Assembly (NCBI GenBank): GCA_018696595.1
Contig: JABHQW010000004.1
Location: 1 to 52,255, forward strand
Reading direction: 5' to 3'
Length of the DNA: 52,255 bases
Source of the DNA: Candidatus Woesearchaeota archaeon
GTDB lineage: Archaea > Nanobdellota > Nanobdellia > Woesearchaeales > GW2011-AR9
The notes below the pieces were generated by a model that searched no databases, had not been told where the DNA came from, and worked only from the letters and a program-made list of their open reading frames with translations. How positions within the stretch are numbered: position 1 is the stretch's first letter; each line of letters opens with the position of its first letter. Positions 4,038 to 19,821 of the stretch are shown piece after piece. The translations under genes were made by a program, and so were the position numbers.

Positions 4038-4101
4038 GTATAGAATTAATATATTATAGTATATAAAAGTTACTTAGGAGAATACAAGTGAAAGTGCACA
4101 A

Positions 4102-4184
4102 GTTACAAAGCCACCCTTGCCAATGGAGGCGCATTTTTTTGTTAGGAAAAAAATCTAAGGCGCCGTGCAGGGTGGTTTTGTAAC
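4102..4184 (+). ncRNA. Candidate structured RNA / palindromic element (family member A)
   Basis: 16-bp basal stem GTTACAAAGCCACCCT/AGGGTGGTTTTGTAAC (one G-U on +), GGCGC/GCGCC stem, ATTTTTTT/AAAAAAAT apical stem; core motif shared with 14486-14564. Confidence 0.55.
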
Positions 4185-4270
4185 AAAACACAATTAGTTT
4201 GACATTGCCCTTTGTAATTAAAGCTTGCCAGAGAGTAAACATTTTTATAATCCTTAACTATTCTCTCCAT

Positions 4271-4900
4271 ATGACTGAAGATTTGAGAAACCTTCCGCCT
4301 GAAGAGCGAATTAAGAAACTGAAAGAGTTAGAGAAGAAAAGGAAGAAAGAGATCGAAGAAGCTAAAAAGGGAATTAAAGAAAGTGAAACCGAATTAACTG
4401 AAAGAAGAAACTGGTTCGAGAAAGTTCCAATTCCACAAATTGCTCAAGATGATTTAACTGGATTAGGTAAAGACGCAAAGAAAATTCTTGAAACTCATAA
4501 AGGCGTTAAAGAAGAGAAAAAAGAATCAGTCGATGAAGTTGTTACTGAAAGTGATAAAAAAGAAATAGATTTAGAAGAGTTAGCCCAAGAAAGAGTTGAT
4601 ATCCCTTTTGAATTAATGCAATCTGAATATGCTCAACATCTTAGTCAGAAACCAGTCCAAGAATTATATGGCGAGATGAAAACTTTGCAAGAAAATGTTG
4701 CTGAGAAAGGTTATGTTACAGCAGAAGAACAACGTAAAGCAGAATATCTTATCGCGGGAATGGAAAACAAACTTGAAGATGTTGAAGAAGGATCTTATTC
4801 TTTTACAGAGAAAGCAGCAATGCGAGCAAGTTTAATTCAACAGATGGGTGCTAAAGTTACGGGCATGTACCAAAGTGGGAAATCAATGTATAAAAGTTAG
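4271..4900 (+). CDS. Hypothetical coiled-coil, acidic protein
   Basis: ORF with start moved to ATG 4271 (MTEDLRNLPPEERIKKLKELEKK), about 30 bp after TTTTTATAAT. Confidence 0.75.
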   Translation: MTEDLRNLPPEERIKKLKELEKKRKKEIEEAKKGIKESETELTERRNWFEKVPIPQIAQDDLTGLGKDAKKILETHKGVKEEKKESVDEVVTESDKKEIDLEELAQERVDIPFELMQSEYAQHLSQKPVQELYGEMKTLQENVAEKGYVTAEEQRKAEYLIAGMENKLEDVEEGSYSFTEKAAMRASLIQQMGAKVTGMYQSGKSMYKS

Positions 4901-4902
4901 TT

Positions 4903-6357
4903 TTACCAAGCGATCATTCTGTGTGCTTTCTTAAAGTTCCTTTTGATGTTAAAAGCATGGAAGGTGCAATGTCCAGTGATAGCCTTTGTTTCACATTTTT
5001 TAGCAGCTTTAATATGATCTTTAGCTAATTGTGCATCAGTAACAACCCCTGTACTACTTTTCTCTTTAGGTGTATAAAAGTCGCCAAAGAATTTCTCAGT
5101 AAAAGATTTCTTAGCAACTTCTTTCTTAACTTCTTCCTTTTTCTTAGTTCCTTTAGCTTCATCTAAATAAATATAAAGTTGTTCACCTAAAGATTCCATT
5201 GCTTCTTTAACAGAAGTTGAAACATCACCAATAATTGCTATCGTTTCTTCCTCTTTAAGAGCCTTATACGCTTCAACTTGTTTATCTGTCCAAGCATAAA
5301 CCCGAAAGTTCATTTCAAATTTACCGATATGTACCGGACCACGTTGATAACCTTCTTGAACAACTTTCATCTCTGGCCGAGTCCGATAAGTAAACGTCGC
5401 TAAAATACAACCATTAGCTCCACTTTTCCCAACAGGCGTTCTTTTACGAGTAAGAACTTCAATATCCAATAAACTCCCTTCAAAAGCAGAAATCAAATCA
5501 GCAGAACCCATATTCTTGTCATGCATAGTTAATCTGGCAACATGTTTCAAATAAGGTTTAATCCATTGCACATACATTTTAATGATTTGGAAATGTTGGT
5601 TCAAATATTGTAACATGAAAATCCTTCTATTTTTGTGTTCCTCATGGGTTCTCTTTTTCCATTCCATAAACTGTTTTAGGTGTCGTTGTAAAACTCTTAA
5701 CACATTCTTGTTAAAATCTACTTCTAAGCCAGAGATGTGTCGATCTAACTCATTGGTATTAGCAAAGACAGGGGCATCAAAAAAAAGATCAGGCAAAGTA
5801 ACAAACTCTAATTCCCTAGACATTCCAAAAACAGAAGCAGCATTCTTTGCTCCTCCTTGAACTAAATCGATAAATATCCCCTTCAAAGTAATTTCTGAAG
5901 ATTTGCTTCTTTTACCAATACTTTTACCTAATTGAGCAGCAGCTTCGTTATAATAACCTAACCGTTCATCAAGAATTCTTAATTCTCTAACCATCTGAAA
6001 TAATTCTTTAATCATTTTTCCAACTGTGGCCAGAAATTGAGAAACTTTATCTTGCTGTGCACCTAATCTTTGTTGAGTCACACCAAAGAAAGCAGAATTT
6101 TCTGAAGCTGCAAAAGAATCTTCTAATTTCTCAATAATTGGAAAATTCTCTTTAAAATTATCTAAAATCCAAAAATATGGTTCTTCTAAACTTAAATCAT
6201 AAGCCTCCATGGTTTGTTGATAAGACTTTAGAGGTTGAGGAAAACCAGTTGGACCATAATCTTCTTTAATAGTCTCTCTATGTTCTTCTTTATCAAACCC
6301 ATGTTTTTTTAATAGGGCTGAACGTGAACTCAAATCTGTATAATAAAAATTTTCCAT
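4903..6357 (-). CDS. Hypothetical protein (484 aa), no recognised domain
   Basis: Long ORF with natural composition and helical/coiled-coil segments. Confidence 0.8.
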   Translation of the reverse strand: MENFYYTDLSSRSALLKKHGFDKEEHRETIKEDYGPTGFPQPLKSYQQTMEAYDLSLEEPYFWILDNFKENFPIIEKLEDSFAASENSAFFGVTQQRLGAQQDKVSQFLATVGKMIKELFQMVRELRILDERLGYYNEAAAQLGKSIGKRSKSSEITLKGIFIDLVQGGAKNAASVFGMSRELEFVTLPDLFFDAPVFANTNELDRHISGLEVDFNKNVLRVLQRHLKQFMEWKKRTHEEHKNRRIFMLQYLNQHFQIIKMYVQWIKPYLKHVARLTMHDKNMGSADLISAFEGSLLDIEVLTRKRTPVGKSGANGCILATFTYRTRPEMKVVQEGYQRGPVHIGKFEMNFRVYAWTDKQVEAYKALKEEETIAIIGDVSTSVKEAMESLGEQLYIYLDEAKGTKKKEEVKKEVAKKSFTEKFFGDFYTPKEKSSTGVVTDAQLAKDHIKAAKKCETKAITGHCTFHAFNIKRNFKKAHRMIAW

Positions 6358-6405
6358 CTTATGCCTCTTTATTACTTGAATTACTTTATTATTTAATAAG
6401 TTTTC

Positions 6406-7032
6406 TTATTTTGAGCACTTAAAGAACCACAAACCTTCTTTCTCATAAAAATTAACAAAGAAACCAACACTCTCAAGAATAGAAACCCATTTAGAAGAAG
6501 GAAACGAATTAACTTCTTTCTGTTTCTGCCAATCGTTAACTTTATTCTGAGATAAGACAACCATTAAAGTTCCATTTAAAACTCTTTTAATTTCTCTCAA
6601 CAAACCCAAATAATTATTAACATAATTTAAAACAAATACTAAAGTCACAGAATCAAAAGACCCAGCACCAAAAGGCAACTCTTTTTCTAAGTCGCCAACA
6701 ACTTTCTTAACACAATTATCATTCCCTTGCAACATCTTAGCAGAGAAATCGAACCCAACAGATTTAACATAACTATAAGCACCACAACCTAAATCAAGAT
6801 TTTCTCCATTCTCTAAAAACTTAAGTTCTGTTGTAATTGCTTTTCTTTTCTCAGCACTAACTTTATGACCCCACATAAAAGCTTCAGCGTTCCAGAAAGA
6901 AACATTATCAGAAGGCCAACCTTTGGCCCAAGAAACCCCAGAAGCTAATTTCTTCATTTTACCTAAATCTTCTTGACCATATTGTAATTCAATTAAACCA
7001 TTAAAAAATTCAGTCTCAGGATCAAGTTTCAT
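6406..7032 (-). CDS. Class I SAM-dependent methyltransferase
   Basis: Motif I NLDLGCG, VVGDLEKELPFGAGSFDSV. Confidence 0.85.
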   Translation of the reverse strand: MKLDPETEFFNGLIELQYGQEDLGKMKKLASGVSWAKGWPSDNVSFWNAEAFMWGHKVSAEKRKAITTELKFLENGENLDLGCGAYSYVKSVGFDFSAKMLQGNDNCVKKVVGDLEKELPFGAGSFDSVTLVFVLNYVNNYLGLLREIKRVLNGTLMVVLSQNKVNDWQKQKEVNSFPSSKWVSILESVGFFVNFYEKEGLWFFKCSK

Positions 7033-7034
7033 TT

Positions 7035-8162
7035 TTAAAATAGAAGAACTGCTAAGTTAGCAAATCCATTAAGTATTAAGCCGCCAGCTAAATTGTCAAT
7101 CATTAAAACGAACACTAATAATAAAATCCTACCAAGACAAATAAAAACCTCTCTACTAACAAAGTAAGGAGCAGCATGACCACGCGCCTTATCATATTCT
7201 AAAGCCCCAACAGGAGATTCAAAAATACCGAAAGTTAATGCCCCAAAAATAGTTACTGCAAATACGTGCCAAACTTTAACAACTAAAGCACGCAAAATCC
7301 AAGATAATGATTCAAATCCTGCAATCCAACGAATAATTTTTCTTTTATCTATATGATCACTATATTTGCCAACAAATAAAACCAAACCCGCACTAATTGC
7401 AGAAAGTAAAAAACCCACTAACCCCAAACTAAAATAATCATTAAGAATATTAAAGATGAATAGTGGCCAAATAACCCCTGCAGCAATTACATGTGTCCCT
7501 CTTGCAACAAAAAATAAAGAGTTTTCCCAATGTTTTTTATCTAACATTGATCGTAACGAGAAATGATATTTAACATAATCTTCTTTACTTAAGAACAAGA
7601 AGAAAGCAGATAAAAACAATAATAATGAAGCCAAAATAAATACAATGTTAAACCCAACAAATTTAATTAAAAGCCCACCCAATAATGGACCAAACATAGT
7701 AGCAATAATAGTAAAAAATTTTCTTTTACCAAATTCTTCCCCACGATGTTTATGGTCACTGACATGTGCAAAAACTAGGTGCATACCCATCCAATAAAAT
7801 GCTTGTGAAAGCCCTAACATTCCAGCAATCACAAATAAAGGCGTGTTTAATACTGGCAAGAAGTAAAGTAACAGGACAAAAACTAAATAAAATGGGACCC
7901 CCAACAAAACCGAATGTTTCAACCCAGCCTGGGCAGCAAACTTAGCAGCAAAAGGAGTACTAATTGCAAAGATTGCAGCATAGAAAATAAAAAAGTATAA
8001 TGTTTGTTGTAAAGAAAAACCCCTCTCTACATAAAGATATAAAGGAATAAATAACCCAATTAAAGAAATTGCAAAAGATCTAATTGCTGAAGAGATGTAA
8101 ACTTGCGTTAGTTCCTTATGCGGAAAGAATCTCCACCAAAAATGTTCGTTATGATGCGGCAT
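7035..8162 (-). CDS. MFS transporter
   Basis: About 12 TM segments, GKYSDHIDKRK motif-A-like loop. Confidence 0.85.
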   Translation of the reverse strand: MPHHNEHFWWRFFPHKELTQVYISSAIRSFAISLIGLFIPLYLYVERGFSLQQTLYFFIFYAAIFAISTPFAAKFAAQAGLKHSVLLGVPFYLVFVLLLYFLPVLNTPLFVIAGMLGLSQAFYWMGMHLVFAHVSDHKHRGEEFGKRKFFTIIATMFGPLLGGLLIKFVGFNIVFILASLLLFLSAFFLFLSKEDYVKYHFSLRSMLDKKHWENSLFFVARGTHVIAAGVIWPLFIFNILNDYFSLGLVGFLLSAISAGLVLFVGKYSDHIDKRKIIRWIAGFESLSWILRALVVKVWHVFAVTIFGALTFGIFESPVGALEYDKARGHAAPYFVSREVFICLGRILLLVFVLMIDNLAGGLILNGFANLAVLLF

Positions 8163-8224
8163 AAATTATCACTCCTTTCTTTGATAAAATTTATAAAAGA
8201 ATATAAGTCTTTCTATTGTTGATT

Positions 8225-8317
8225 GGGCCCGTGGTCTAGTAGCTATGACGTCCGCCCGACTTTCATTCAATATGATTGGAACGCGGAAGATCGTGAGTGC
8301 GAGTCTCACCGGGCCCA
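8225..8317 (+). tRNA. tRNA-Val(GAC)-like gene with a 20-nt BHB intron (8262-8281); non-canonical loops
   Basis: Acceptor GGGCCCG/CGGGCCC+A73, anticodon stem TCCGC/GCGGA, T stem GTGAG/CTCAC, 5-nt variable loop; BHB central helix CCGA/TTGG and outer helix TCAT/ATGA; TTTATAAA upstream. Confidence 0.7.
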
Positions 8318-8379
8318 TTGTTTCTTTTATTATTTCTTAAACAGTTAGAAATATAAACAATAAAGATTTAATTAGTAAG

Positions 8380-8910
8380 ATGGACAATTATCAACAGCAG
8401 CAAAGTGTGGCGCAACAAGTTCAACCAACACAGACACAACAAATAGAACAGCCACTTTACGTCCTACAGCAAAACAAGAAAAGAGCACTAATTCCAAAGA
8501 TAACAACCCAAGTGGTCTTAGGGGCTATCTTCTATTTAGGAGTTCTGTTAAACATTTCATTGTTAAAACTAAGCGCTAGCAGTGAAACAGTAATAAAATT
8601 GGTAGCATTGATATTATTATTATTAATTGTAATTGTTGGAATTTTTTTGGCATTTCATCAAGCAAATCTTCCTTACAGATTTTATCGTAACAGGATTAAG
8701 TTATACAAAAAAGAAGTTCTTTACGTAAATATAATCAATACAAACCCAAAAATAGATTTCTGGGATAAATTTTTCAAAACATATTCAATAAAAATAGCTA
8801 AAGATAAATATATCCGTAATATCCCACAAACAGTCCAAATAAGTAACTATTTACAACAATTAATCAATTATGCAAAGAACTCTACTTCTTCACAAGGTAA
8901 TTTTCAATAA
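8380..8910 (+). CDS. Hypothetical two-TM membrane protein with Gln-rich N-terminus
   Basis: ORF; two hydrophobic helices followed by a basic soluble domain. Confidence 0.7.
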   Translation: MDNYQQQQSVAQQVQPTQTQQIEQPLYVLQQNKKRALIPKITTQVVLGAIFYLGVLLNISLLKLSASSETVIKLVALILLLLIVIVGIFLAFHQANLPYRFYRNRIKLYKKEVLYVNIINTNPKIDFWDKFFKTYSIKIAKDKYIRNIPQTVQISNYLQQLINYAKNSTSSQGNFQ

Positions 8911-9889
8911 CAATAGATGTGAAAGCTAAAATTAGTGGACCAATGATTACACCTAATACTCCAAAGAAATACAAACCACCAAAGATTCCCACTAACATAA
9001 TTAAAGGATGAATCTTAGCAATGTTGCCCATTAGTTTTGGTCGAATAAAGTTATCTAAGGTAGCCACGAAAATCAAACAATATACAAAAAGTAAAATCCC
9101 CTTAACAATTGAACTATTAGAATTATTAAATATTCCTTCAAGAATTAATATTGCTGAAGCAGGGACCCAAACAAAACCAGTCCCCAAATAAGGGATCAAA
9201 GCCAGTAAAGTCATGATTACCCCCCAAAATAAAGGAGAAGAGATACCAAAAATGAAAAACCCTAAAGCCCCTAATGCACCTTGAACTAAAGCAACAACAA
9301 AATAACCAAAAGTAATTCCATGAATAATTCCCCCTAAACGTTCAAGAGTGTTAGCATATCTCTTCTTTTGCAAGCGTAAATATTTCCTAATCTTTTTAAG
9401 TAAGTTTTCTCCTTCTTTCAAAAAGTAAAATAAAGTAAATAAAAACACAATCAAATTAATAATCATTCTTGGCAAACTAGCTAAAACCCCAGAACTTGCA
9501 GAGATTACCCAATTAGTAATTGACTTCACCCCTTCTTGAATCTGATAACTAAATTCAGGGTTCTGAATCGCGGTTTTCATACTTTCACAAATACTATGTT
9601 GACAATTAGAAAACAAGCCCATGGCCAATTTTTGTTTAACAAGGATAAAGATAACATAAGTTTCTTGAATTAAAGATTTAATAAAGAAAAAACCAGGCAG
9701 TATTATTAACAATAAAACAACTAAAGAGAGAATTAAAGAAGACCAAGTAGGACTAATTTTTTTCTCAAGTTTTTGATGTAATGGAAATAAAAGATAAGCC
9801 ACAAAACCCCCAAGAAATAATGCTTTAAGGAAAGGTTGAACTATTAAAAACGAGAGAATGAATAATATCCCCAGTATAATTAATGGCAA
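8882..9889 (-). CDS. AI-2E (PerM) family transporter
   Basis: ALIPYLGTGFVWVP, LDNFIRPKLMG, IHPLIMLVGIFGGLYFFGVLGVIIGP signature. Confidence 0.9.
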   Translation of the reverse strand: MPLIILGILFILSFLIVQPFLKALFLGGFVAYLLFPLHQKLEKKISPTWSSLILSLVVLLLIILPGFFFIKSLIQETYVIFILVKQKLAMGLFSNCQHSICESMKTAIQNPEFSYQIQEGVKSITNWVISASSGVLASLPRMIINLIVFLFTLFYFLKEGENLLKKIRKYLRLQKKRYANTLERLGGIIHGITFGYFVVALVQGALGALGFFIFGISSPLFWGVIMTLLALIPYLGTGFVWVPASAILILEGIFNNSNSSIVKGILLFVYCLIFVATLDNFIRPKLMGNIAKIHPLIMLVGIFGGLYFFGVLGVIIGPLILAFTSIVIENYLVKK

Positions 9890-10013
9890 ATAATCTCTGT
9901 AATTAATCTAAATCACCTCTTTTATAAGTAAAGACTATTTTAGAATATATAAAGATTTTGATTTCAAGAATTTTAAAAAAAGAAAAAAAAAGAAAAAAAT
10001 AAAGCCGTTAGGC

Positions 10014-12533
10014 TTATTGTTCTGCTTCAACTTCAGGTTCTACAACTTCTTCCATTACTTCTTCAACAACGGTAGGAGCACCAATTGTTGCGTCTGCAGT
10101 GGTTGTACCTTCGATCTCAACTTCATCGCCACTTAACTCAGAGTATCTCTGTGCGATAACCTTACCAGCCAGTCTTGTATCCGCTCCGGAGTAACCTGCA
10201 ACTAACATTGCTACACTCTCTCCATTCTCGAATAACTTAACTCTTGCTTTTCCAGGTGTAAATCCTTCTGTACAGTCTACTGGATTACCAAGTAATTCAG
10301 CAGCCACAGTGTTAACACATGGTCCACCAACAACAATTAAGTTCTGAGCCATTGCATCTGCAACTTCACTATCTAACTTTGTAGCGTCAACAACTTCAAC
10401 AGCTACCATACTTCCGCCACTTGCACTGGATGCAGTTACTGTAGATCCAGAAGTTACGTACAGATTTCCACCAACTTGAGCTTCGGGAACATCAATCTCA
10501 ATTGTTCGGGAACTTCCACTTGGATTTGTTTCCTTAACAAAAGTACCATAATTTTGGTAACCTTTAGTTACAGTGCTCTCTTCAGGGTCACTTACCCAGA
10601 AAGTCATGTTGCCATTCCTTACTTGAGAGTCTACTTCTGTATCAGCTTCAGTAAAACTAAAACTTACGGAAACGTTCTCATCAGTTCCTGTTAAGTCGTC
10701 TTTTCTGTCATCGTCGTCAGTAATTAAGTCAACAAACAATCTTGCATCAGTCATACCAACTCTGTGCCCTGTAGTGGTACCCAAAGTAGCGTTTGTGTTT
10801 TCAATCTTAATCCATCCGTTATTCTTAGTCCTTAACGAAAAACCAACACTAGCATTCCTGGCTGGCAAATAATGGCCTGATGTACTGACGTTACGAATAG
10901 CACCATTCTGAGATGAGGTCAATTGAACTGGATCATTATCAGTTGTTCCTAACGTACCGTTTCTACCATTAAATGTTGTTCCACCTAACTTTATGTCAAA
11001 TGTACCTGTAGATGCAAGAGTTCTAGTCAATGTTTCACCAGTACCTATATTCTTAAAGGTAACCTTTGGATCTGTGTCATCTGTTCCATCTCTACCAGTA
11101 TATTGCAGTAAATAACTTCTTGCATCATTACTTGTAGTTGCTGCAGCTTTATCGTTCAAGAAGAAATATTGGTTCCGGGTAACATTATTATATGTTGCGT
11201 TTAATATTAGTTCCCTTCCAGTTTTTTCTCCTAAGTACAAACCACTTGTGTTAGCGAAGACTAATGGAACTTTAATGGTTGTACCTTCAGAATTCTCAAA
11301 GGTAAGATCATACTCTGAATCTCCACCACTTGGAACAATCGTAATAGGAGATGAATCCTCTGTTGAAAGTCCCTGGAATTCAATGTCCCAATTTTGACCG
11401 AACAATACTTGAGGTTCATCCATTGCACCATCTTCACTTAACTTTTCTCCACTAGCTAAGAAGAAATCGTCGTCAGCAGACATGTTAATGTCAATCTGAT
11501 CTAATTGAAGATCTGATCCAGTTGTAGTAAATGTCCATCGCACACTTGCATCATTGATAGTTTCATCATTCACTTCTAAGTTATTATTGTGATGCAACTT
11601 TAACTTGTTTGCCCCAATAAAGAACTTTGCTGCATGAATACCACCTGCATAGTTTTGGTAAGTAATATCTGTTACGCCAATAACTGTACCATCACTCAAC
11701 TTATCGGTGTCTCCGTCAGCTAAAGCAGTAGTTAATTCACCATTAATTACAAACTTAGCTTTATTTACAGAACTGTACGCAGCAACTGACTGTAATGAAA
11801 CAGTATAATCTACGTCACCAACAAGATAATTTCCTTCATCTCCTTCTTGAAGAGTATCACTTGTAGAACCACCCATCAAAGTCAATTCAGGAGTACCTGC
11901 GGAATCATTCTTTGCTTGAACAATAGTCCATTCTTTTCCAAGAACATTAATGACTTCGTCTTCAAAATCTTCCAGATTTGAGCTGGAGTCAATATCAGAA
12001 TCAAATGTTGAGGTAAAGTCCAATACGTATCGTGCAAACTTTGTTCCAGATGGAATCTTATAGAATGCACCAAGGTTATTGTCTTCATCTTCTTCGTAAG
12101 TCAATCCAATATAACTATCGTCAAAGTGTAAGAACTGTTCATAGTTAGATGTTCCTTTTTCGTTAGTTACTGAACCATCTGCCAATGCACCAAGATCTCC
12201 ATCGGTAATGTATGACTCAACGTCACTAATATCATCGTTGAACTCTAAGATATTTGTGCTAGTTGCAACCAACCAAGTATCTCCTTCTAAAGATGTAGCA
12301 ACTGTTCCACCACTGGAAATTTTCATACTTGCTGCAATATCAGTCATTGCCAAATTGTCTACAGATGCAGCGTTTTCACCAACTACGAAATATCCATCAA
12401 ATACGCCATTATCTACAAACATATTTGGATAGTCGTTTAGGTCTGCTGCTAACGCACCCATTGCTGTTGCCCCTAGCATCAAAGCGCCAGTAAAGACAAC
12501 AGACATGCGTTTCACCATTCTTTTTATTTTCAT
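10014..12533 (-). CDS. S-layer protein (Methanococcales-like N/C-terminal domains)
   Basis: Signal peptide, ADLNDYPNMF, AASVDNLAMTDIA N-terminus and NLIVVGGPCVNTVAAEL...VAGYSGADTR C-terminus; start at ATG 12533 after GGAGGTG; poly-T terminator downstream. Confidence 0.9.
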   Translation of the reverse strand: MKIKRMVKRMSVVFTGALMLGATAMGALAADLNDYPNMFVDNGVFDGYFVVGENAASVDNLAMTDIAASMKISSGGTVATSLEGDTWLVATSTNILEFNDDISDVESYITDGDLGALADGSVTNEKGTSNYEQFLHFDDSYIGLTYEEDEDNNLGAFYKIPSGTKFARYVLDFTSTFDSDIDSSSNLEDFEDEVINVLGKEWTIVQAKNDSAGTPELTLMGGSTSDTLQEGDEGNYLVGDVDYTVSLQSVAAYSSVNKAKFVINGELTTALADGDTDKLSDGTVIGVTDITYQNYAGGIHAAKFFIGANKLKLHHNNNLEVNDETINDASVRWTFTTTGSDLQLDQIDINMSADDDFFLASGEKLSEDGAMDEPQVLFGQNWDIEFQGLSTEDSSPITIVPSGGDSEYDLTFENSEGTTIKVPLVFANTSGLYLGEKTGRELILNATYNNVTRNQYFFLNDKAAATTSNDARSYLLQYTGRDGTDDTDPKVTFKNIGTGETLTRTLASTGTFDIKLGGTTFNGRNGTLGTTDNDPVQLTSSQNGAIRNVSTSGHYLPARNASVGFSLRTKNNGWIKIENTNATLGTTTGHRVGMTDARLFVDLITDDDDRKDDLTGTDENVSVSFSFTEADTEVDSQVRNGNMTFWVSDPEESTVTKGYQNYGTFVKETNPSGSSRTIEIDVPEAQVGGNLYVTSGSTVTASSASGGSMVAVEVVDATKLDSEVADAMAQNLIVVGGPCVNTVAAELLGNPVDCTEGFTPGKARVKLFENGESVAMLVAGYSGADTRLAGKVIAQRYSELSGDEVEIEGTTTADATIGAPTVVEEVMEEVVEPEVEAEQ

Positions 12534-12697
12534 TTTAAAAAAACACACCTCCGTGTTTAATCTCTTTTTGTTATTACCCCATCATCATTCTCTTGCCGTC
12601 CTATAAAAATTTCGCAAGAAGTACACATCAAGTGGTACCACTTTTCGATTTTACAGACGATATTCTGATGAGATTACAACTAAAAACCCAATTTCGC

Positions 12698-12713
12698 TTT
12701 ATAAGCTTTTCGC
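12698..12713 (-). promoter_or_regulatory. BRE/TATA promoter of the S-layer gene (implies a 5' leader of about 140 nt)
   Basis: Minus strand GCGAAAAG-CTTATAAA, matching archaeal BRE+TATA. Confidence 0.55.
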
Positions 12714-12767
12714 AAAAATCGAGGTAGAAAAGACGAGAAAATGCATTAGGGGCCGTGCTGGCGAAAA
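12707..12767 (+). repeat. Degenerate member of the GCCGTGC stem-loop family
   Basis: TTTTCGC/GCGAAAA basal stem, GAGG on the 5' side and GGGGCCGTGC on the 3' side, as in 4102 and 14486. Confidence 0.35.
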
Positions 12768-12772
12768 ATATT

Positions 12773-12891
12773 GCGAGAAGGAGAAGTCATCATTTCCCAA
12801 TAACAAATATTATCTTATAGAACTAAGTTCTATATTAGTTCTATTTCCCGTTTATTGTTGGGAGAAAAGTCAAAAATGGTCTTTATTTTGC
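12773..12891 (+). other. Long imperfect rod-like inverted repeat with a perfect 19-bp internal palindrome
   Basis: ATCATT/AATGGT, TCCCAATAACAAA/TTTATTGTTGGGA, TATAGAACT-A-AGTTCTATA (12816-12834). Confidence 0.5.
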
Positions 12892-12920
12892 GGAGAAAGG
12901 ATAATCTTCTAGGCAATCCC

Positions 12921-14432
12921 CTATATCTTAGTAAAATAAAGATTAAATAACTTATTATTCAATTCAGAAATCTTAATTCGCTCTTGTTTTGTCGTATTTC
13001 GATCTCGGATCGTAACACAATCGTCTTTCAAAGTGTCAAAGTCAACAGTTATACAATAGTTCACACCTATTTCATCGGCCCTTGCGTATCTTCGCCCCAC
13101 AGAAGCAGATTCATCATAATAACAAGAGTAACAAGTTTTGATTTGTTGGTAAACTTCTTTGGCTTTATTAGTAACTTCTTCCTTATTTTTTACTAATGGT
13201 AAAACAGTACAAAAGAAAGGAGAAACTTTTGGAGAAAAGTTTAGAACAGTAATTGCTTTGCCCTTTTCATCAGTTCTTGTTTTATATGCATCAAACATTA
13301 ATGCTAAGAAAGCTCGCCCTACACCCTGAGAAGGTTCTGCAGCAACCCTTGGGATGATTTTTTCTTGAGTTTGTTCGTTAAAGTATTCTAAATTCTTTCC
13401 TGAATGTTCTTTATGTTGAGTTAAATCAAATTGTCCCCGGTCGGCTAAACCATAAATTTCTTTCCAGCCAAAAGGAAAATTATAATCTAAATCAAAACAA
13501 GCTTTAGCATAATGAGCAAGTTCTTCTTTTGTGTGTTCTCTTACTCTTAGGTTTTCGGGCTTCATGCCCAAGTCTTCAGTAAACCAAAGGAATTCTTGCA
13601 CTAACCAATAAGCCTGCCATTTGTTAATTTGTAAATTTAATAATTCTTGAACAGTGATTTTTGTTTGTTCTTCTCCCTTTTCTTGATTTTCTGCAGAGTA
13701 AACATTTAGTTCTAAATCTAAGTATGGTTTTAATAAAGGACAATCGTCTGCCTTGCCCGGATGAGTAAAGAATTCAATCTCCATTTGTTCAAATTCTCTC
13801 ACACGGAATAAAAATTCTCTTGGTGAAATTTCGTTACGGAAAGCTTTTCCAGTTTGAGCAATTCCAAAAGGAAGTTTTACTCTTGTTGTATCTATAACAT
13901 TTTTAAAATTAGTAAAAATAATTTGGGCAGTTTCCCCTCTTAGATATGCTAAGTTTTCGCCAGTTTCTTTTGGGCCAACATAAGTTTTAAACATTAGGTT
14001 AAATTGCGAGCATTCACCAAACTCTTCAGATTGGCATTTAGGACATTTAAGTCCTTTCTCTTTTATTGTTGCGTTAAAATATTCTAAAGATTTTCCTTCT
14101 ACATTTAGGTTATGTTGATCTTCAATTAAATGGTCTGCCCTATGTCTAGCGTTGCACTTTCTACATTCTATTAATACATCCGCAAAAGAATCTATGTGAC
14201 CAGAAGCTTTCCAAACATCTTTTGAAGAAACGATTGAACCGTCAATCCCCACAACATCATCTCTGTCTTGTACAAACCGTTTCCACCAAGTTTGTTTGAT
14301 TTTGTTGTTTACTTCGACTCCAAGAGGACCGAAGTCAAAGAATCCAGATAATCCACCATATATTTCAGAGTTAGGAAATACGAACCCTTTCTTTTTACAG
14401 AAAGTTGCCATTTCTTCAATGTTTAGAGTCAT
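12921..14432 (-). CDS. glyS: Glycyl-tRNA synthetase (class II, alpha2 type)
   Basis: GFFDFGPLG, YLRGETAQ, FRNEISPR, REFEQMEIEFF, EPSQGVGR, GRRYARADEIG. Confidence 0.97.
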   Translation of the reverse strand: MTLNIEEMATFCKKKGFVFPNSEIYGGLSGFFDFGPLGVEVNNKIKQTWWKRFVQDRDDVVGIDGSIVSSKDVWKASGHIDSFADVLIECRKCNARHRADHLIEDQHNLNVEGKSLEYFNATIKEKGLKCPKCQSEEFGECSQFNLMFKTYVGPKETGENLAYLRGETAQIIFTNFKNVIDTTRVKLPFGIAQTGKAFRNEISPREFLFRVREFEQMEIEFFTHPGKADDCPLLKPYLDLELNVYSAENQEKGEEQTKITVQELLNLQINKWQAYWLVQEFLWFTEDLGMKPENLRVREHTKEELAHYAKACFDLDYNFPFGWKEIYGLADRGQFDLTQHKEHSGKNLEYFNEQTQEKIIPRVAAEPSQGVGRAFLALMFDAYKTRTDEKGKAITVLNFSPKVSPFFCTVLPLVKNKEEVTNKAKEVYQQIKTCYSCYYDESASVGRRYARADEIGVNYCITVDFDTLKDDCVTIRDRNTTKQERIKISELNNKLFNLYFTKI

Positions 14433-14485
14433 TTTAGTTTGGATTAGTTTATTGTTTATTAAGTTTTTTGTAAAAGCATCTTATT

Positions 14486-14564
14486 TTTTGAGAGCTGCGC
14501 CAAAAGAGGCACACGAGGAAGACGCAGCCTTACTCGTAATTGGTGCCGTGCCCTGCTCTCAAAA
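14486..14564 (+). ncRNA. Candidate structured RNA / palindromic element (family member B)
   Basis: Perfect TTTTGAGAGC/GCTCTCAAAA basal stem, GGCAC/GTGCC and ACGAG/CTCGT stems; 42 of 79 nt are G+C. Confidence 0.6.
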
Positions 14565-14569
14565 TAAAT

Positions 14570-15544
14570 TCAGTTCTTTTGTAATAAACTTTCAGGAAAA
14601 TAAGAATACTTGTAAATCTTCAATGCTTTATAGTAAAAATAGGATCTAATCTTTCCAGGGAATAAGGATTTGATTTCATTAATCAATTTGTAAAAATCTT
14701 CTTGAGATTTTAATTCGCAGTCAAACTCGAAATCAGAACCGCCAACCGCAATATCCTGGTAAATCACATTAGGATGTTGAATTATGAATTGATTTAAAGA
14801 GGGGATGATGTTAATATCTTCTAATTCCAAATCAACTTTATAATATTCGTAACCCAATTTCTTTTGATCTATAAGTAACTTGTATGCAACAATAACTTTA
14901 TTTTTTTCTAAATTCCTAAGTTTGTATTTTACTCCAGTTGCAGTCATTTTAAGCTTTTTAGCTAATTCCAAAAGAGTAATTCTTGCATTTTCTGAGATTT
15001 CCTGCAATAATTGTAAATCTTTTTCATCAACAGAATATTCTTGAACACTTCCTGTAGACAAAACAGAATCACTATACTTCTTTTTTTCAACCAAATAATT
15101 CCTGTTGTAATGATGGTATTTAGTAAGTATAGAAAAACCACTATTAATAACATAATGACGATACTTTTTCAAAAAATTTTCATAAACTTTTTGATAAACA
15201 TTTAAATCTTTAACTAAAAATCCTAAAGCAAGATCAAATTTACCATCTGTCCGATAAATAGTAAAAACATCTTTCTCTTTTAAAAAATAAGCAACAATTT
15301 CTTCATCCAATTCGGTAGTAGTATTCTTTAACTCTAGATACAATCTTATCGCTTGATAACCTAACTTATTAAAATCAATTAACGCAAAATAACCACTAAT
15401 GATTTTATTTTTTTCTAATTGTTTTATTCGATAATTAACTACGTCCCGGCTTAATTTAGTTTTCTTAGCAATACTATTAATTGATTGTCTGCTATTCTGG
15501 TCAAGTTCGAAGAGGATTTGTAAGTCTTTTTTGTCTAATTTCAC
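14570..15544 (-). CDS. Lrp/AsnC-family regulator with duplicated HTH-RAM units
   Basis: Two HTH starts (LDKKDLQILFELDQNSR; VDEKDLQLLQEISENAR), each followed by a RAM-like domain. Confidence 0.9.
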   Translation of the reverse strand: MKLDKKDLQILFELDQNSRQSINSIAKKTKLSRDVVNYRIKQLEKNKIISGYFALIDFNKLGYQAIRLYLELKNTTTELDEEIVAYFLKEKDVFTIYRTDGKFDLALGFLVKDLNVYQKVYENFLKKYRHYVINSGFSILTKYHHYNRNYLVEKKKYSDSVLSTGSVQEYSVDEKDLQLLQEISENARITLLELAKKLKMTATGVKYKLRNLEKNKVIVAYKLLIDQKKLGYEYYKVDLELEDINIIPSLNQFIIQHPNVIYQDIAVGGSDFEFDCELKSQEDFYKLINEIKSLFPGKIRSYFYYKALKIYKYSYFPESLLQKN

Positions 15545-19690: not shown

Positions 19691-19821
19691 TTTTGAGAGC
19701 AGCGCCAAGATTATGAGCGTTTTATCAGAGAAAATATTAGTCTGCGGTGGGGGGTGCCCCATCCAGGGAGGACCGCAATCATAAAAACCATAGAAGAAGC
19801 GAACTGGCTTTGCTCTCAAAA
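19691..19821 (+). ncRNA. Candidate structured RNA / palindromic element (family member C)
   Basis: Same TTTTGAGAGC/GCTCTCAAAA termini and GCGCCAA as 14486; internal TTATGA/TCATAA and TGCGGT/ACCGCA stems. Confidence 0.55.

Follow-up and report, generated by a model that had tools for sequence, protein, structure and literature searches.

The stretch analysed here, referred to as the window, comprises 52,255 nt of contig JABHQW010000004.1 from assembly GCA_018696595.1 (Candidatus Woesearchaeota archaeon), and it contains two intergenic hairpins, A and B. Judging from sequence comparison, these hairpins are very probably the centres of old copies of a miniature inverted-repeat transposable element (MITE) that used a borrowed IS5-type transposase in Woesearchaeota-type archaea. 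In the mechanism we propose, an IS5-family transposase would bind ends common to its own insertion sequence and to the short elements, and would move the latter in trans by ordinary DDE transposition. We call the complete units MITEs because they have inverted ends and 9-bp duplications, because insertion sequences with the same ends exist, and because there are empty sites and a patchy distribution. An earlier note on this DNA had left four options for the hairpins (small RNA, ribozyme, protein-binding motif or palindromic mobile element) and favoured a structured RNA under selection, with a promoter of its own; the mobile element is the option that gained support, and the favoured one did not.

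Two hairpins built around one asymmetric core

The features of the two elements are as follows. Comparison genomes, contigs and loci are cited by handles beginning with G, C and L, respectively.

4077 to 4222, no strand: probable MITE relic A, whole element, about 146 bp
4102 to 4184, + strand: central hairpin of A (basal stem, core and apical stem; model R1, 78.4 bits)
4119 to 4168, + strand: asymmetric conserved core of A, GC-CAATGGA-GGCGC ... 5-nt bulge CTAAG-GCGCC-GT-GC (exact pattern match)
14474 to 14576, no strand: probable MITE relic B, about 103 bp, between direct repeats TTTTGTAA
14486 to 14564, + strand: central hairpin of B (model R1, 59.5 bits)
14466 to 14473, no strand: probable target duplication of B, left copy, TTTTGTAA (8 of 9 positions if taken as 9 bp)
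14577 to 14584, no strand: probable target duplication of B, right copy, TTTTGTAA

Direct reading of the sequence located both claimed hairpins, and their module-by-module match is exact. A reads GCCAATGGA-GGCGC-(ATTTTTTT/AAAAAAAT)-CTAAG-GCGCC-GTGC, enclosed by a 16-bp basal stem, and B reads GCCAAAAGA-GGCAC-(ACGAG/CTCGT)-AATTG-GTGCC-GTGC, enclosed by TTTTGAGAGC/GCTCTCAAAA. The predicted fold of A is more stable on the + strand (-39.4 kcal/mol, z -6.2 against shuffles) than on the - strand (-33.1), and that of B is more stable on the - strand (-34.2, z -4.3) than on the + strand (-31.4, z -3.9).

The match between A and B is not due to chance, since a strict pattern of the core found 12 matches in the 1.19-Mb genome and none in the reversed control. 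A looser search brought the number of copies to 18. From the alignment of these 18 (alignment A1) we built a covariance model, a step that the earlier note had asked for, and it recovered 25 copies genome-wide, including two within the window. All copies in this genome are intergenic. Alignment A1 contains three helices, in which 82% of cells pair, compared with 65% in shuffles, and both sides have changed in 21 of 29 pairs. The compensatory change that had been noticed in the P2 stem of A and B is genuine and broader than claimed: GGCAC, GGCGC, GGGGC, GGTAC, GGGAC and AGCAC each occur with a matching partner, across genera.

The invariant part consists of GC-CAANNGA-GG..C on the 5' side and G..CC-GT-GC, preceded by a 4-5-nt bulge, on the 3' side. 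About 22 core positions are nearly invariant across 28 genera, bearing out the claim of exceptional conservation, while helices P1 and P3 and the ends vary freely. The centre keeps a one-sided loop of 5-7 nt and a one-sided bulge. In a variant of the core, the NN of the loop is replaced by a small covarying hairpin (GUC/GAC, GAC/GUC or GGC/GCC). The apical stem of B shares 90% identity with its counterpart in a G002 unit of this hairpin-loop variant, and B is therefore a mosaic of subfamilies. Some units are nested, with one core on each strand and the apical stem of the outer copy serving as the basal stem of the inner one. A search of this genome for the same outer stems without the core found none, which suggests that the core does not move on its own.

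Complete units, target duplications and empty sites

To define the boundaries of the element, near-identical copies from different loci of G070, G118, G042, G123 and G068 were aligned together with their flanks. Similarity stops sharply at inverted ends, which start with GG(C/T) and finish with (G/A)CC, and a different 9-bp direct repeat surrounds each copy. A script run on related genomes identified 13 insertions that combine a GG.. inverted end with a perfect 9-bp duplication; all 13 duplications differ, the units measure 121-188 bp, and their inverted ends match at 9-14 of 14 positions. Examples of unit ends are GGCTCTGTAGAA.., GGYNKGTCYAGAATA and GGTAATGTCAAGTTA. A complete unit is thus 120-190 bp long, non-coding and almost wholly palindromic. 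Short size (under about 300 bp) without coding capacity, terminal inverted repeats, a target duplication of fixed length and dispersed copies with presence/absence differences, the marks of a MITE, are all found here.

Insertions of this kind can also be read in the genome of the window and in its congeners. One copy on contig C3 (about 284.06-284.24 kb) has ATAGAAAAG on either side, and its ends match at 10 of 12 positions. A clean 147-bp insertion in the congener G002 is flanked by the 9-bp duplication CTATTTCTC, and its counterpart in the present genome, C4:18478, is an empty site. At A, neither the corresponding G001 site nor either of the two G002 loci carries an element; homology with G001 extends across the TATA region and breaks off within a few bases of 4076/4077. 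Element B is missing from the corresponding sites of the same-genus genomes G001 and G002, and homology with G002, which has no element there, ends at about 14472, at the left repeat. A search of the genome for the end pair GTCAAGTTA was too noisy for use. We also considered a 195-bp unit for B bounded by TCTTCAATG repeats and rejected it: G002 has the left part without any element.

The right end of A, ...TTTGACATTGCC (4211-4222), is of the GG(C/T)AATGTCAAGTT type, and G002 and G118 units with ends of that type share homology with the right arm. Its left end, GGAGAATACAAGT, starting at 4077, is degenerate, and the two match as inverted ends at 9 of 15 positions.

Partner insertion sequences with the same ends

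Related genomes (G118, G041, G057 and G070) contain insertion sequences of about 0.92-1.0 kb that have MITE ends and 9-bp duplications:

G118, L316:633-1626: ends GGCTCTGTAGAAATGC.. and GGCTCTGTAGAAACCCT.. (GGCTCTGTAGAAA..), duplication CTAAGAACA; the G070 MITE end GGCTCTGTAGAAACCCTCC is nearly the same
G057, L321: ends GGCTCTGTAGAATTGC.., 9-bp duplication TATATTACA
G041, L320: end GGCTCTGTAGAATTGCTTTATAA; a MITE end of G042, from the same genus, is equal at all but one of 23 positions
G070, L313:464-1383: ends GGTCTGTCCAGAA.., which match the MITE ends GGYNKGTCYAGAATA of G014, G018, G068, G123 and G022

Each has a single open reading frame (ORF) of 298-325 aa; that of G118 lies at L316:613-1545, on the minus strand. 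These ORFs match NCBIfam NF033579 (IS5 family transposase) at 140.2, 138.2 and 106.5 bits, at or just below its cut-off of 140, and Pfam PF01609 (DDE_Tnp_1) at 51-62 bits. The core itself was absent from all insertion-sequence loci examined.

Presence of this transposase goes with abundance of the element. Among the 113 genomes of the taxonomic family, 8 encode a close homologue of the G118 transposase (at least 63% identity), and at least 10 core matches were found in 6 of these 8, compared with 7 of the remaining 105 (Fisher p 1.7e-5, or 1e-3 when counted by genus). The groups were set with the data already in view, and related genomes are not independent samples; these p-values are therefore only indicative.

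Other candidates for the partner were set aside. IS1 transposases occur only in coreless genomes, and the one readable IS1 end pair (G017, GGGGGTG..) is unlike the MITE ends. The transposase loci L296, L299 and L302 have no MITE-type ends. Tyrosine recombinases were found in 23 of 23 family genomes, whether the element was present or not. Integron attC sites, which form arrays of co-oriented sites at cassette ends beside an IntI integrase, were likewise rejected: copies of the element are scattered singly and in both orientations, and the tyrosine recombinases are independent of it.

The hairpin shape, conserved asymmetric centre, freely covarying stems and occasional nested inverted doublets would also suit an element resembling repetitive extragenic palindromic (REP) sequences or their hairpin-forming doublets (REPINs), moved as a folded single strand by an HUH Y1 transposase of the REP-associated (RAYT) or IS200 type. 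However, a search of 24 genomes found no Y1_Tnp (PF01797) in any of those that bear the core, the present genome and G002 included, and the units carry 9-bp duplications and inverted ends in the DDE style. REP elements are not known to make target duplications or inverted ends of that type. We therefore regard such a mechanism as barely credible.

Two more insertion sequences with perfect 9-bp duplications were seen in G118, at L317 (contig C57; 868-2096) and L318 (contig C177; 726-2540). One has ends GGCTTTGCGTGGA.. and the duplication TTTTTTAAC; the other has ends CAGCGATTCCCGTTTT, a 459-aa transposase and the duplication GTTCTAGTG.

Patchy distribution, and points that weigh against mobilisation in trans

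Core matches occur in 35 of the 113 genomes of the taxonomic family, representing 28 of 58 genera; 16 genomes from the order's other families have none. The genus of the window by itself spans 0 to about 39 copies: one congener (84% complete) has none and G002 has 34-39. Counts are similarly uneven in other genera, such as g71, whose two genomes have 22 and 1, and g3, whose two genomes have 11 and 1. Identical or near-identical copies occur in several family genomes, in part at contig ends.

A pattern scan of a genome collection gave mostly chance matches, in GC-rich bacteria. The named records with true matches were only metagenome-assembled genomes (MAGs) of Woesearchaeota/Nanoarchaeota and three MAGs labelled Methanosarcinales. 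Among viral contigs, 61 pattern matches were found, none of them true by the covariance model. The three Methanosarcinales-labelled records (L098, L143 and L157) carry true copies, and one of them equals G002 in coordinates and score; these labels look doubtful.

Several observations weigh against mobilisation by a borrowed IS5-type transposase. Some concern A and B themselves. No target duplication of A was found on reading its flanks directly, and A has just one good end; the repeat around B is only 8 bp, and its GG.. ends are not clear. With their own ends and duplications imperfect, we placed A and B in the MITE family because their interior and arms are homologous to complete units. Others concern the partner. 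We found no insertion sequences with GGTAATGTCAAGTT or GGCTTCATCCGGAATA ends, and PF01609 as a whole shows no association with the core (16 of 35 core genomes versus 40 of 78 coreless ones). No IS5 or IS1 transposase, or remnant of one, was found in the present genome or its two congeners, and G002 nonetheless has its many copies; the present genome likewise yielded no PF01609 transposase. The present genome has no large dispersed repeats and hence no resident insertion sequence; lacking such a transposase, it would hold its 25 copies as stranded relics. Copies were located via the core, so those with a decayed core are under-counted. Nor would a plain MITE model lead one to expect higher conservation in the centre than at the ends, or the retention of the one-sided loop and bulge. 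Finally, transposition is deduced here from sequence alone.

RNA or DNA

The earlier note had taken the covarying stems as a sign of selection on RNA. Paired stem changes, however, do not separate RNA from DNA, because a DNA palindrome behaves alike. The claim that G-U pairs favour the + strand does not hold generally: B folds better on the minus strand, and the outer stems of 68 copies contain 34 G.T and 29 A.C mismatches. In the predicted minimum-energy folds of these 68 copies there are 130 G-U pairs in the sense orientation and 71 in the antisense; about 68 of the sense pairs should be the single conserved G.U of the core, one per copy. Orientation of the core relative to flanking genes is also unbiased (15 co-oriented, 11 opposed, 16 in divergent spacers and 4 in convergent ones; p 0.56).

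In agreement with the statement that the hairpins belong to no known RNA family, Rfam scans at gathering and at permissive thresholds returned nothing credible on A or B. Over the whole window the only Rfam hit was a tRNA gene at 8225-8317, and the best matches on A and B were chance ones to microRNA and small nucleolar RNA models, far under threshold. ARAGORN found no tRNA-like match on the elements.

The tRNA gene at 8225-8317 (+ strand) scored 49.2 bits with Rfam and was missed by ARAGORN. Its length, 93 nt, suggests an intron or some other non-standard feature.

We also examined the TATA-like boxes that had been proposed as promoters of the hairpins. The boxes exist, but they are probably not promoters of the elements: they lie 23-32 nt upstream of minus-strand start codons (4037 and 14432) and are retained in element-free congeners. 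Read on the minus strand they are TTTATATA and TTAATAAA, about 27 nt before the start codons of the neighbouring genes, which encode an AP-endonuclease-fold protein (at A) and a class II aminoacyl-tRNA synthetase (at B). This position fits promoters of those genes, assuming leaderless mRNAs. A and B each start about 40 bp upstream of the start codon of the minus-strand gene, just past its TATA box.

These results bear on the possibility that A, B and their relatives are independent genes for small structured RNAs, each with its own TATA promoter. Stable + strand folds, covariation in P2 and the other stems, the intergenic position of the copies and the conserved core G.U are what such genes might show, and the sense strand is slightly more stable (mean -0.86 kcal/mol, p 0.047). 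But the boxes fit the neighbouring genes and persist where the element is missing; the target duplications, inverted ends and cognate transposase mark the units as inserted DNA; copy number within the genus falls to zero; and neither strand is preferred once the single core G.U is set aside. We consider separate RNA genes very improbable, and A and B are most likely not RNA genes.

What the core might be

If A and B are relics of a MITE, the conservation of their centre calls for an explanation. One is that the core is a functional cargo of the MITE. It would then be either a folded RNA, transcribed by read-through or on its own, or a DNA site, single-stranded or duplex, that a conserved host protein recognises; this function, perhaps as a regulatory hairpin, insulator, terminator or decoy, would preserve it in addition to any role in transposition. 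The near-invariant positions, kept over 28 genera while P1, P3 and the ends change, speak for this, as does retention of the asymmetric 5' loop and 3' bulge, both of which simple homogenisation of a palindrome would remove. The covarying hairpin that replaces NN indicates a fold more than a duplex site. In addition, the core occurs with three or more end types and is missing from the parent insertion sequences. Against a cargo stand the unbiased orientation of the core relative to flanking genes, stems without wobble bias, the lack of any Rfam match, and nested units with the core on both strands. Furthermore, 78 of the 113 family genomes, one of them a congener, have no match, so the core cannot be essential. 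On balance we think a cargo of this kind improbable.

We also considered a kink-turn, the motif bound by L7Ae. A kink-turn has a three-nt bulge followed by tandem sheared G.A and A.G pairs. This candidate was rejected: the loop here has 5 nt, and an invariant U stands opposite the first G (GA opposite GU).

Within the reading of A and B as MITE relics, our best guess is that selection at the element level maintains the core as a module; it might, for instance, bind a host factor, or fold in a way that aids transposition, or tolerance, of a very short element. A more specific proposal, which we put forward tentatively and think rather unlikely, is that the invariant asymmetric core is a functional module that has been combined with several IS5-type end pairs and acts as a site or fold for a conserved archaeal protein, or as a small RNA. 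If that were true, the centre and not the ends would be the unit under selection in this MITE family, and the core would make very short elements transposable or tolerated, or would give the host a dispersed regulatory hairpin.

Neighbouring genes and other repeats

The right end of B covers the stop codon (14570-14572) and the last two codons of a tandem Lrp/AsnC-type regulator gene (14570..15544, minus strand; ORF and Pfam data). Insertion of B thus appears to have supplied the present end of this gene.

Beside A, a 209-aa gene at 4271-4900 is inverted relative to G001 and both G002 loci; in those genomes, it lies upstream of the AP-endonuclease-fold gene in the same orientation. A comparable single-gene inversion adjoins a G002 element (L029, compared with C8:50377-50730 of the present genome). 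A rearrangement at the A site may account for the absent target duplication. Transposition of insertion sequences accompanied by large deletions is known to leave no duplication (PMC11708052).

The window contains a further palindromic element, of a second family:

19691 to 19820, + strand: second-family palindromic element (weak R1 match, 13.2 bits; sequence and fold)

It has the outer stem of B (TTTTGAGAGCAGC-GCCAA ... GCTCTCAAAA) around a different inner module (GCGGTGGGGG...CCGC ... GAAGCGAACTGGC). Four copies of this family are present in the genome: the one in the window and those on C3 (about 334.1-334.24 kb), C5 (about 48.8-48.95 kb, minus strand) and C8 (about 12.8-12.95 kb). The outer stem common to B and the second family suggests that interiors have been exchanged modularly between element families. 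A pair of long inverted repeats, C6:115247-115397 and C3:261948-262093, both with AAACCCTCACCATT, is possibly a third hairpin repeat family.

Significance and comparison with known systems

If A and B are indeed MITE relics, a family of hairpins with textbook compensatory changes is inserted DNA and not a new RNA class. This would remove a false lead and serve as a warning for structured-RNA screens of AT-rich DPANN genomes. It would also tie hairpin repeats of Woesearchaeota to IS5-type DDE transposases via common ends and 9-bp duplications. The puzzle is that conservation is higher in a short asymmetric centre, which the parent insertion sequence lacks, than in the ends predicted to bind the transposase.

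The partner insertion sequences resemble the IS903 group of the IS5 family: they are about 1 kb long, encode one DDE transposase of 300-330 aa that matches the NCBIfam model transpos_IS5_2, and have GGC.. ends and 9-bp duplications. The last two traits, both observed in the partners, we take to be typical of the IS903 group. GGnnnTG ends are also reported for IS1 and IS6 (PMC6807381).

The units share their hairpin shape, inverted doublets and combination of a conserved motif with variable stems with REP and REPIN elements and their RAYTs. They differ in having target duplications and DDE-type ends, and a Y1 transposase was not found in the core-bearing genomes searched. Correia (NEMIS) elements of Neisseria have a TA duplication, a site for integration host factor (IHF) and promoters; unlike them, the present family duplicates 9 bp. 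Like Correia elements and other bacterial MITEs, it is hairpin-forming and intergenic, and those MITEs have functional interior sequences and effects on adjacent genes (PMC10969869).

Among archaea, the same review of MITEs names no DPANN as having described ones (PMC10969869), and a census counted 105 MITEs per Mb in one Woesearchaeal genome, the families not being described (PMC11602168). The family reported here is a MITE family in the ordinary sense, and its logic is closest to that of the SM elements of Sulfolobus. In Sulfolobus solfataricus, the MITEs SM1-SM4 are mobilised in trans by resident insertion sequences (PMC10969869, citing Redder, She and Garrett 2001). Like these, the present elements are short and non-coding, number tens per genome, are mostly intergenic, have inverted ends in common with full insertion sequences as well as target duplications, and are non-autonomous. 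Unlike them, they are found in DPANN, have a nested, near-palindromic interior and are most conserved in an asymmetric centre that the parent insertion sequence lacks.

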